Sequence record: OK272472.1
Source of the DNA: Escherichia phage JLBYU28
Reading direction: 5' to 3' (one strand)
Length of the DNA: 64,000 nucleotides
Shown here: piece by piece, positions 53,118 through 53,261 of the stretch
Layout of the letters: each line of letters opens with the position of its first letter
Numbering within the stretch: position 1 is the stretch's first letter
The notes under the pieces: generated by a model
Told to the model about the DNA's origin: nothing
The model's input: the letters and a program-made list of their open reading frames with translations, nothing else
Databases searched by the model: none
Translations under genes and position numbers: made by a program

Positions 53118-53261
53118 AATTATCTTTGTAGATAAGCTACCCAGACTTGCTTAAGGTCTGTAGCGATGTGCCTTTTTGGGTTTAAATCTAGAATTTACCC
53201 ATTCACCCTTTGTGGTCGCATACTCACAGGTAAGCTTAATAGCTTATCTACAAAGATAATT
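53118..53261. repeat. 22-bp perfect inverted repeat enclosing ~100 nt (candidate structured RNA or RNase III-type processing site)
   Basis: AATTATCTTTGTAGATAAGCTA (53118-53139) is the exact reverse complement of 53240-53261; interior has further short hairpins. Confidence 0.6.

Follow-up and report, generated by a model that had tools for sequence, protein, structure and literature searches.

What is the element of about 144 nucleotides (nt), closed by a long inverted repeat, that lies among the transfer RNA (tRNA) genes of Escherichia phage JLBYU28? It occupies positions 53118-53261 of a 64,000-nt stretch of sequence record OK272472.1, which we refer to as the window. The phage is of the Felix O1 type (Felixounavirus), and a query of 1.8 kb centered on this region is 94-97% identical to Felix O1, Mushroom, wV8 and some 270 other records. 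A preliminary description made from the letters alone had offered three candidates: a processing site for the polycistronic tRNA transcript, a stable small RNA with a Y-RNA-like terminal stem, or a miniature inverted-repeat element. Our comparisons lead us to regard the element, with considerable confidence, as a functional, structured RNA domain of the minus strand. For its functional membership of a Ro-like ribonucleoprotein (RNP) system we see the case as evenly poised, and the sections of evidence below are arranged so that the RNA, its neighbors and the competing explanations can be judged in turn. The element and its immediate surroundings are laid out as follows, in the direction of transcription.

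53240 to 53261, minus strand: 5' arm of the terminal helix, AAUUAUCUUUGUAGAUAAGCUA in RNA sense, defined by the perfect repeat and the alignment
53140 to 53239, minus strand: core of 100 nt enclosed by the stem, occurring as types A and B in the alignment
53203 to 53234, minus strand: 5' hairpin of the type A core (CUUACCUGUG..CAC..GGGUGA), tentative, from minimum free energy (MFE) folds only
53178 to 53200, minus strand: central hairpin, GGGUAAAU-UCUAG-AUUUAAACCC, from invariant columns and covariation
53142 to 53160, minus strand: motif (distal) hairpin, CAGAC-CUUAAGCAA-GUCUG, from a pattern match and covariation
53118 to 53139, minus strand: 3' arm of the terminal helix, UAGCUUAUCUACAAAGAUAAUU, ending 4 nt before the 5' end of tRNA-Lys
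53114 to 53117, minus strand: linker UAAU, 4 nt, from the end of the stem to the 5' end of tRNA-Lys
53040 to 53113, minus strand: tRNA-Lys(UUU), found by tRNA search, first of a Lys-Met-Ile sub-cluster and directly downstream of the element

The exact 22-bp inverted repeat with its 100-nt spacer, which the preliminary description had taken as unlikely to arise by chance, stood up to scrutiny. Positions 53118-53139 (AATTATCTTTGTAGATAAGCTA) are the reverse complement of 53240-53261 at 22 of 22 positions, and no longer perfect inverted repeat exists in the window at spacers of up to 300 nt; 20 shuffled windows gave longest repeats of 12-15 bp, and about 3e-6 such repeats are expected analytically from base composition. 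The repeat had also been placed correctly between tRNA-Lys (53040-53113) and the first hairpin repeat, and its stem does have a size suited to RNase III, that is, about 20 bp or more of near-uninterrupted double-stranded RNA: the helix is perfect over 22 bp here, and in relatives it spans 21-22 bp, including G.U pairs and no more than one mismatch. Searching the window for further copies of the arm returned none, even at three mismatches, and the element is single-copy there. It lies within a transcription unit of 22 tRNA genes on the minus strand (49284-54034) and on the same strand as these. Folded as minus-strand RNA, the 144 nt reach -51 kcal/mol (z = -6.75). The 100-nt core folded by itself is no better than shuffled sequence (z = -0.09), and the thermodynamic signal of the element therefore comes from the stem.

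Close relatives, to which the preliminary description had pointed as a place to look, carry the element. It was matched in 247 phage records (250 places), 189 at 95% identity or above, and occurs once per genome with three exceptions; tRNA-Lys is annotated beneath most of the matches listed. We recovered 33 copies representing 20 distinct sequences from GenBank and IMG/VR loci and aligned 19 distinct sequences. Two types of core were found that differ strongly in their 5' half, type A in the window, Felix O1 and Mushroom, and type B in the Mooglevirus phages Sf13 and Sf16, the Suspvirus SUSP2 and the Felixounaviruses BPSELC-1 and fBSPA4; both retain a terminal helix of 21-22 bp, and the total length of the element stays within 141-146 nt.

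The alignment also indicates which strand carries the signal. About 98% of the cells in the terminal helix (98.6%) are paired, compared with 26-45% when the partner is slid by one to three columns. Both partners differ between variants at stem pairs 4, 12 and 19, two of these being changes from U-A to C-G and the other a change from G-C to C-G, and pairs 5, 6, 17, 18 and 20 vary through G.U wobbles. The stem alignment contains about 42 G.U cells in total and a single A.C cell; since the plus strand would be mismatched at those 42 cells, selection acts on the minus-strand transcript, the strand from which the tRNAs are also read. At stem position 20, all 18 other distinct variants have U.G and only this genome has C-G, so that the perfect match between the arms is specific to this genome. 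The junction of linker and tRNA, CAAAGRTRATTTAATGGRAGTGTAGC, is kept in 25 viral contigs. A separate point concerns BPSELC-1 (L003) and fBSPA4 (L005), which are Felixounaviruses bearing the type B core otherwise found in Mooglevirus and Suspvirus; their sequences would imply that the cassette has been exchanged, through recombination inside the conserved arms and flanking sequence.

Within the core, the inner hairpins that the preliminary description had named, CAGAC/GTCTG at 53142-53160 and GGGT/ACCC at 53178-53200, both proved real, the former with a compensatory change in relatives. In type B, the motif hairpin reads CAGACC-CUUUAGCAA-GGUCUG or CAAACC..GGUUUG, and across the alignment 100% of its cells are paired, with one pair changing from G-C to A-U in compensation. 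The apical AUUCUAGAUU of the central hairpin (53185-53194, minus strand) is invariant across both types; the type B hairpin is longer, with compensatory change in its outer stem (UUUCCU/AGGAAA to UCUCUU/AAGAGA), and in L025 an A-U pair has become G.U. The stretch of the 5' hairpin has a different sequence in type B, and the joint alignment of the two types is unreliable in the 5' half of the core, where the structure is taken from MFE folds alone. A conserved length, covariation inside the core and an invariant loop together show, so far as sequences can, that the core is functional and that the element goes beyond a mere cleavage site, being probably a gene or domain of RNA.

One detail of the fold can be read in two ways. 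The sequence G-UAGC, in which UAGC is the first 4 nt of the 3' arm, can pair with GCUAC in the core, just 5' of the motif hairpin, and this alternative would stack the motif hairpin on a remaining stem of 18 bp; as the positions concerned are invariant, covariation cannot choose between stems of 22 bp and 18 bp. We also note that AUUCUAGAUU includes the palindrome UCUAGA, which could permit kissing-loop dimerization, and that the 7-nt loop UUCUAGA has a U-U-C-N-A pattern resembling a T-loop only as judged by eye.

The motif hairpin connects the element to its neighbors. A search with the pattern AGACC-N0-3-TTW-N0-1-AGCAA gave five matches in the window where 0.02 are expected, all of them on the minus strand and within 53147-53861. 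Four belong to full hairpin modules and the fifth, a variant, lies inside the element. The four modules were located by repeat search and pattern match.

53263 to 53393, minus strand: HR3, CAGAAGACCG-UUUACAGCAA...CGGUCUGG
53407 to 53483, minus strand: HR2, lower stem GAGC/GCUC
53635 to 53699, minus strand: HR1, lower stem UUAC/GUAA, between tRNA-Met and tRNA-Asn
53794 to 53865, minus strand: HR4, lower stem UGAC/GUCA, between tRNA-Glu and tRNA-Met

The modules share the form AGACC..UUUACAGCAA..GGUCUGG. Each has a lower stem of 4 bp that covaries between paralogs (UUAC/GUAA, UGAC/GUCA and GAGC/GCUC), a junction containing A.G, an upper stem AGACC(N)/(N)GGUCU, and a loop that opens with UUUACAGCAA and continues into a variable insert. 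Written out as four paralogs, CAGAAGACC(NN)UUACAGCAA...(NN)GGUCUGG, they are unannotated in the GenBank records inspected and have no Rfam match. In the element, the motif hairpin is a minimal variant copy at the top of the 3' strand; its stem, AGACC/GGUCUG, is identical to that of the four modules, and its loop, UUAAGCAA or UUUAGCAA, differs by one mismatch from the UUCAGCAA variant found in the contig L042 described below.

HR3 abuts the element, its lower stem overlapping it by 2 nt, and the insert of HR3 holds a permuted set of tRNA-like parts: a V-arm, a T-arm (GAAGG-UUCGAUU-CCUUC), a closed acceptor stem (ACUCGAC-AGAU-GUCGAGU) and a D-arm (GUGU-AAUGGUA-GCAC). The repeat search grouped the T-arm of HR3 with the 3' ends of genuine tRNAs. 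When the tRNA-like parts were un-permuted and submitted to ARAGORN, variant v3 passed and so did controls with scrambled loops, a result that indicates a geometry compatible with a cloverleaf and nothing beyond that.

Upstream of this cluster, and co-oriented with the tRNAs, lie two promoter-like sequences and a gene for a Ro60-like protein, at distances of about 800-940 nt from the element.

54061 to 54181, minus strand: two sigma-70-like promoters, consensus matches only, at 54181-54153 and 54090-54061 in the interval from the Ro-like gene to tRNA-Pro
54200 to 55615, minus strand: 471-amino-acid protein with a Ro60 fold, Pfam DUF2828 and DUF7788/vWA, from Pfam, an AlphaFold (AF2) model and fold comparison

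The two promoters, as consensus matches, likely mark the start of the element's transcript, and no credible minus-strand terminator was found between them and the element. The protein is the ortholog of gp130 of phage Bas63 and is called 'hypothetical' or 'RNA-binding protein' in most records. Its AF2 model has a predicted local distance difference test score (pLDDT) of 87.9 and a predicted template modelling score (pTM) of 0.88; the best eight PDB structure matches are all Ro60, Rsr or TROVE proteins over the full length (E about 1e-8, TMq 0.49-0.66), and the next are vWA/MIDAS domains. As modelled, the protein is thus predicted to have a full-length Ro60 fold, consisting of a TROVE ring and a vWA domain. 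Sequence and profile searches of the protein against the PDB returned nothing significant, and the likeness to Ro60 comes from fold comparison only; we accordingly treat the protein as a Ro60-fold homolog of the DUF2828 kind, without a sequence-level TROVE match, and not as a TROVE-annotated ortholog. Using tblastn, we found the family in 709 phage records, including mycobacteriophages, where it is labelled 'Ro-like RNA binding protein'. A preprint of 2024 arrives at the same fold for gp130 of Bas63 and shows by deletion and complementation that this Ro60-like protein counters the ppl defense system; its authors speculate that "some tRNA genes are possibly Y RNAs" (bioRxiv 10.1101/2024.10.10.617714). 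Our literature searches on DUF2828 and on small RNAs of Felix O1 returned nothing relevant.

We then asked how far the modules accompany this protein family. We defined a CAGCAA-loop module as a 5-7 bp variable helix with a 5'-AAG...CUG-3' closure (A.G, A-U, G-C) and a loop that opens with (N)(U/A)(U/A/C)CAGCAA, encoded on the same strand as the gene and no more than about 1 kb from it; the element itself lies on that strand and within that distance. In Klebsiella phage FBKp34 (L033), which belongs to another subfamily and whose protein is 51% identical, the 480-nt gap between the gene and the tRNA array contains four stems with loops opening in (U/A)UACAGCAA, one of which has a permuted tRNA-like domain. 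In L042, an 88-kb contig with 47% protein identity, the modules use UUCAGCAA and one is tRNA-like. LeBron, Listeria LMSP-25, Vibrio phi-pp2, Aeromonas LAh_6 and Campylobacter CP81 each have two to four (A/U)ACAGCAA modules abutting the gene. A permuted tRNA-like domain was found in one module per inspected cluster. CAGCAA modules thus flank DUF2828-type genes in many uncultivated phages and in phages that infect Klebsiella, Mycobacterium, Listeria, Vibrio, Aeromonas and Campylobacter; at least seven host genera are represented overall. Their locations include the following.

L033, 3940 to 4420: modules of FBKp34
L042, 6640 to 8230: modules of the 88-kb contig
L117, 3428 to 3680: modules
L118, 1620 to 1880: modules of Listeria LMSP-25
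L034, about 2473 to 2542: modules
L035, 2220 to 2416: modules
L036, 2373 to 2445: modules of Campylobacter CP81
L044, L054, L056, L091 and others: further modules

The association was quantified in 75 uncultivated-phage loci with 38-47% protein identity. In these, the gene strand carries 75 copies of TACAGCAA and the opposite strand 17. Up to 700 nt from the gene, its density on the gene strand is 0.49-0.57 per kb; it drops to 0.037 per kb at greater distances and is 0-0.06 per kb on the opposite strand. The bare CAGCAA core is enriched four- to fivefold near the gene. Stem-enclosed copies make up 62% near the gene against 30-46%, a background that is high because the stem search is permissive; 52 of the 75 loci have a stem-enclosed CAGCAA near the gene. 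Two of the clusters bear directly on the element. Those of FBKp34 and L042 each contain one module in which an A/U-rich helix of 18-21 bp continues the stem below its AAG/CUG closure, and the extended module of L042 ends just before tRNA-Pro with an arm (AAUCUUUAAGAUA) that resembles the arm in the window (UAUCUUUGUAGAUA). It is on account of this one long-stem module per cluster that we infer a corresponding place for the element in the Felix-type cluster, as its long-stem member, in which the motif hairpin would have been reduced to a 9-nt loop and the variable insert moved 5' of the junction.

The CAGCAA modules of DUF2828-type genes appear to be an undescribed RNA family. No description of them was found in the literature that we searched, which is not proof that none exists; the earlier survey of Chen et al. 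considered only TROVE-annotated loci and discarded candidates that overlapped tandem tRNAs (PMC4201824). Among phages, Y RNA-like sequences have been attributed to mycobacteriophages, CcrColossus, Bacillus phage G and phiLo; bacterial YrlA RNAs, like Yrl1 and Yrl2 of phiLo, are reported to carry the motif GNCGAA or CGAA (PMC4201824, PMC12135203). Two side observations belong to these loci. Listeria LMSP-25 has an RtcB-like 'tRNA-splicing ligase' about 1.3 kb downstream of the Ro-like gene (L118 4808-5455), which echoes the bacterial linkage of rsr and rtcB. In Campylobacter CP81, the annotated ORF140 (L036 2403-2540) overlaps one of the two CAGCAA motifs (at 2445) and, judging from that overlap, may be a mis-call.

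The explanation that we favor for these observations is that the element is a Y-RNA-like long-stem noncoding RNA of about 144 nt within a phage Ro-like RNP, and a candidate partner of the 471-amino-acid protein; we would give this explanation an even chance of being correct. A precursor would be transcribed as a polycistronic RNA from promoters just downstream of the Ro60-fold gene, with tRNAs interleaved with four AGACC-UUUACAGCAA...GGUCUGG modules and with the element as a fifth, long-stem member. The modules would be the RNA partners of the Ro-like protein in the way that Y RNAs, among them YrlA and YrlB, are partners of Ro60; HR3 would be a YrlA-like tRNA mimic, and the element the member most like a classical Y RNA. 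From general tRNA biology, RNase P would be expected to cut at the 5' end of tRNA-Lys, 4 nt downstream, and so free the 3' end of the element, after which the 22-bp helix would shield that end from 3' exonucleases or would itself be trimmed by RNase III. Transcription and processing of the element, its binding by the protein and any part in counter-defense are putative. A mechanistic analogy is provided by MALAT1/mascRNA, where RNase P cuts ahead of a tRNA-like structure and thereby makes the 3' end of the preceding RNA; here the cut would fall at a tRNA 5' end, and the new end would be shielded by a stable structure that stops a few nucleotides short of it. The element has a plain long helix in a bacterial phage, however, and not a triple helix.

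Comparison with characterized Y RNAs supports this explanation in part. Like YrlA and YrlB of Salmonella and Mycobacterium, Yrn1 of Deinococcus and Yrl1/2 of Thermus phage phiLo (PMC4201824, PMC12135203), the element and the modules are several small structured RNAs on the same strand as a Ro60-fold gene and within about 1 kb of it; by the criterion of a place within 4 kb of the Ro60 ortholog and on its strand, the element qualifies, lying 940 nt downstream of the Ro60-fold gene and co-oriented. The ends of the element are paired in a long stem around a large loop, which is the generic Y RNA shape, and HR3 matches YrlA (PMC4201824) in the order of its V-arm, T-arm, closed acceptor stem and D-arm. 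There are also differences: the protein here is divergent (DUF2828/DUF7788), the RNAs are embedded in a tRNA array instead of being free-standing, and the conserved motif, (U/A)(U/A)CAGCAA, begins a loop on top of a stem with AAG/CUG closure, at the loop's 5' side, unlike GNCGAA or GGUCCGA in a bulged helix.

Several results weigh against the explanation and must be set beside it. The canonical Ro-binding motif (GNCGAAN0-1G or GGUCCGA in a bulged helix; PMC4201824) is absent from the 144 nt, and the terminal helix of the element is fully paired, without a bulge. An Rfam cmscan of 53100-53900 at E values up to 10 found no Y RNA or YrlA model, only tRNAs and noise, the latter comprising weak matches to MIR473, Dicty class I and a snoRNA, which we rejected. 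The motif loop of the element is without the 'CA' of UACAGCAA and has a C-G closure where the modules have A.G, and the AGACC..AGCAA pattern that united them was written after the data had been seen. A covariance model of the element, run against 82 sources, found no homolog outside the Felixounavirus/Mooglevirus/Suspvirus group; matches in L052 and L066 were dismissed as coding-like sequence, and module 1 of FBKp34 is among the weak matches. Finally, two other long hairpins that abut tRNA 5' ends, considered below, carry no motif, and the stem might therefore serve the processing of the tRNA precursor independently of the Ro-like protein. The tRNA-like domain that defines YrlA is also missing, in that the element has no set of T-arm, D-arm and acceptor stem, while the adjacent HR3 has the full permuted set. 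Because the element fails the tests of motif, bulged helix, tRNA-like domain and Rfam match, we do not describe it as a member of the Y RNA/YrlA family; we describe it as an RNA that would work like a Y RNA in a divergent system. The Y-RNA-like small RNA of the preliminary description nevertheless gains strong support from its context, from the Ro60-fold neighbor, the shared motif and the modules in distant phages, although a canonical motif and an Rfam match are wanting.

The strongest competitor holds that the helix serves chiefly to process or insulate the tRNA precursor, either as an RNase III substrate or as a leader hairpin that protects a 3' end, setting the upstream RNAs apart from the Lys-Met-Ile sub-cluster, and that the core has no Ro-linked function of its own. 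Three long hairpins in the window end 1-4 nt before a tRNA 5' end and have similar 3' arms (..AAAGAUAAUU); besides the element these are the following.

51975 to 51877, minus strand: long hairpin of about 26 bp before tRNA-Leu, with a 3' arm resembling that of the element
about 52592 to 52543, minus strand: long hairpin of about 16 bp before a tRNA-like gene, with a 3' arm resembling that of the element

The 3' arms of these two read ..AAAGAUAAUU and ..AAAGACUUAAU, and the hairpin at about 52592-52543 is kept in relatives in two forms with compensatory changes. Given three such hairpins and compensatory change in one, these arrays repeatedly place a stable helix, under selection, against the RNase P site. 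The T4 tRNA precursor and the T7 early RNAs are processed with the participation of RNase III, and the stem of the element is retained at 21-22 bp, about two helical turns, in both types despite sequence change; the same length of helix, between units of a polycistronic RNA, is seen in the RNase III stems of the T7 early region and the T4 tRNA precursor leader. RNase III processing of the element is plausible. Classical T7 sites, however, combine an internal loop with a small loop at the apex, whereas the helix here is fully paired and closes a conserved, structured core of 100 nt. For cleavage alone there would be no need of such a core, in which the length is conserved, the helices covary and the AUUCUAGAUU loop is invariant, and the two other leader hairpins have small or simple loops where the core of the element holds the cluster-specific motif. 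We regard it as rather unlikely that processing is the whole account, which would require the core to be dispensable, against the evidence of its conservation, and it is in any case compatible with a Y-RNA-like role, since it concerns maturation rather than function. The element might instead be an independent stable RNA of the tRNA cluster, acting through base-pairing or kissing via the UCUAGA loop or as a decoy for a nuclease of the host. Species 1 and 2 of T4 (rnaC and rnaD) are stable non-tRNA RNAs of about 120-140 nt that are co-transcribed among phage tRNA genes and released by tRNA-processing enzymes, and the element resembles them in size and in its setting inside a tRNA array; it is structured and conserved, and an invariant palindromic loop without a canonical Ro-binding motif would suit this role. 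To our knowledge no Ro-like gene lies adjacent to the T4 genes. Against this account, the element shares its motif with the modules of a Ro-like-associated cluster, long-stem modules with the motif occur in other clusters, and no DNA similarity to T4 (sequence similarity to species 1 and 2 included) or to any phage outside Ounavirinae was detected; we consider it distinctly improbable.

Two further accounts place the signal elsewhere than in a minus-strand RNA. A DNA-level element, whether a miniature inverted-repeat transposable element (MITE) or other mobile repeat, a cruciform, or a palindromic site for protein binding or recombination, would fit the perfect terminal repeats in this genome and the exchange of core types between genera, which suggests recombination within the conserved arms. 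Its predictions are otherwise contradicted: the element is single-copy and always at the same locus, its inner helices covary, the flanks (..CCATTA / ACCAGA..) contain no direct repeat and hence no target-site duplication, and the substitutions in the arms are strand-asymmetric, giving G.U in the minus-strand RNA and A.C mismatches on the other strand, which would confer no advantage in duplex DNA. We rejected a MITE on these grounds, and with it the third candidate of the preliminary description; that description had proposed to look for the same terminal repeats at different loci in other phages, and all 250 places in the 247 records are beside tRNA-Lys; a DNA-level role of any kind strikes us as very remote. 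Coding potential is offered by a 76-amino-acid open reading frame on the plus strand (53166-53396) that is present in the window, Felix O1 and Mushroom and annotated as a hypothetical protein in some GenBank records. It is confined to type A genomes, being absent from five of the five type B relatives examined, and it runs antisense to the 3' half of the element and to HR3, both of which are conserved as RNA structures of the opposite strand; we rejected this account, to which we attach almost no weight.

If the Y-RNA-like reading is extended to the protein family as a whole, the element and its four neighbors would be RNA partners of a large and divergent group of Ro60 homologs built from DUF2828 and vWA domains and would represent a new class of Y RNA, recognized through the CAGCAA loop in place of the canonical motif in a bulged helix, typically comprising a tRNA mimic and a long-stem member in each cluster, situated in phage tRNA arrays or beside them, and matured by tRNA-processing enzymes. 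We offer this larger proposal tentatively, and lean somewhat against it as a complete account. Were it true, the RNP would be what counters host defense (ppl in the case of Bas63), and deletion of the RNAs would phenocopy deletion of the protein. Ro60/Y RNA complexes are conserved from bacteria to humans, Ro60 is an autoantigen in lupus and Sjogren disease, and the mechanisms of these complexes are partly understood; for a Ro60-like protein active in counter-defense, the element and the modules are conserved candidate RNAs that can be named with their coordinates and structures and that have a motif in common. As a lead, CAGCAA-loop RNAs that partner a large phage family of Ro60 homologs would matter more than the element itself. 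There is also a consequence for annotation, as such stretches are left blank, called hypothetical proteins or possibly mis-called as tRNAs in hundreds of phage genomes, including those of therapeutic and diagnostic Felix O1-type phages.

A number of smaller observations concern the tRNA array itself. The long hairpin at 51877-51975 overlaps a terminator-like hairpin, AAAGACC-UUUUU-AGGUCUUUUU. At 52463-52541 on the minus strand, Rfam recognizes a tRNA-like gene (tRNA, 31.2 bits) that ARAGORN does not, and relatives annotate a tRNA-Arg(TCT) or pseudo-tRNA nearby. The window is without the pair of tRNA-Asp and (pseudo)tRNA-Tyr that Felix O1, Mushroom, Sf13 and others have between tRNA-Asn and the hairpin cluster, here at about 53535-53571. 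When the window was compared with L001 2323-2492 and L002 1441-1611, the BLAST pieces shared an overlap of about 37 nt where the 3' ends of tRNAs are alike, and the pair may accordingly have been deleted by recombination between tRNA genes. Lastly, a 10-bp long-range stem (AUGGGACG..CGUCCCAU) encloses a T-arm-like GGGG-UUCAACU-CCUC at about 52225-52330 on the minus strand, just upstream of tRNA-Ser(UGA), and may be another tRNA remnant or mimic.

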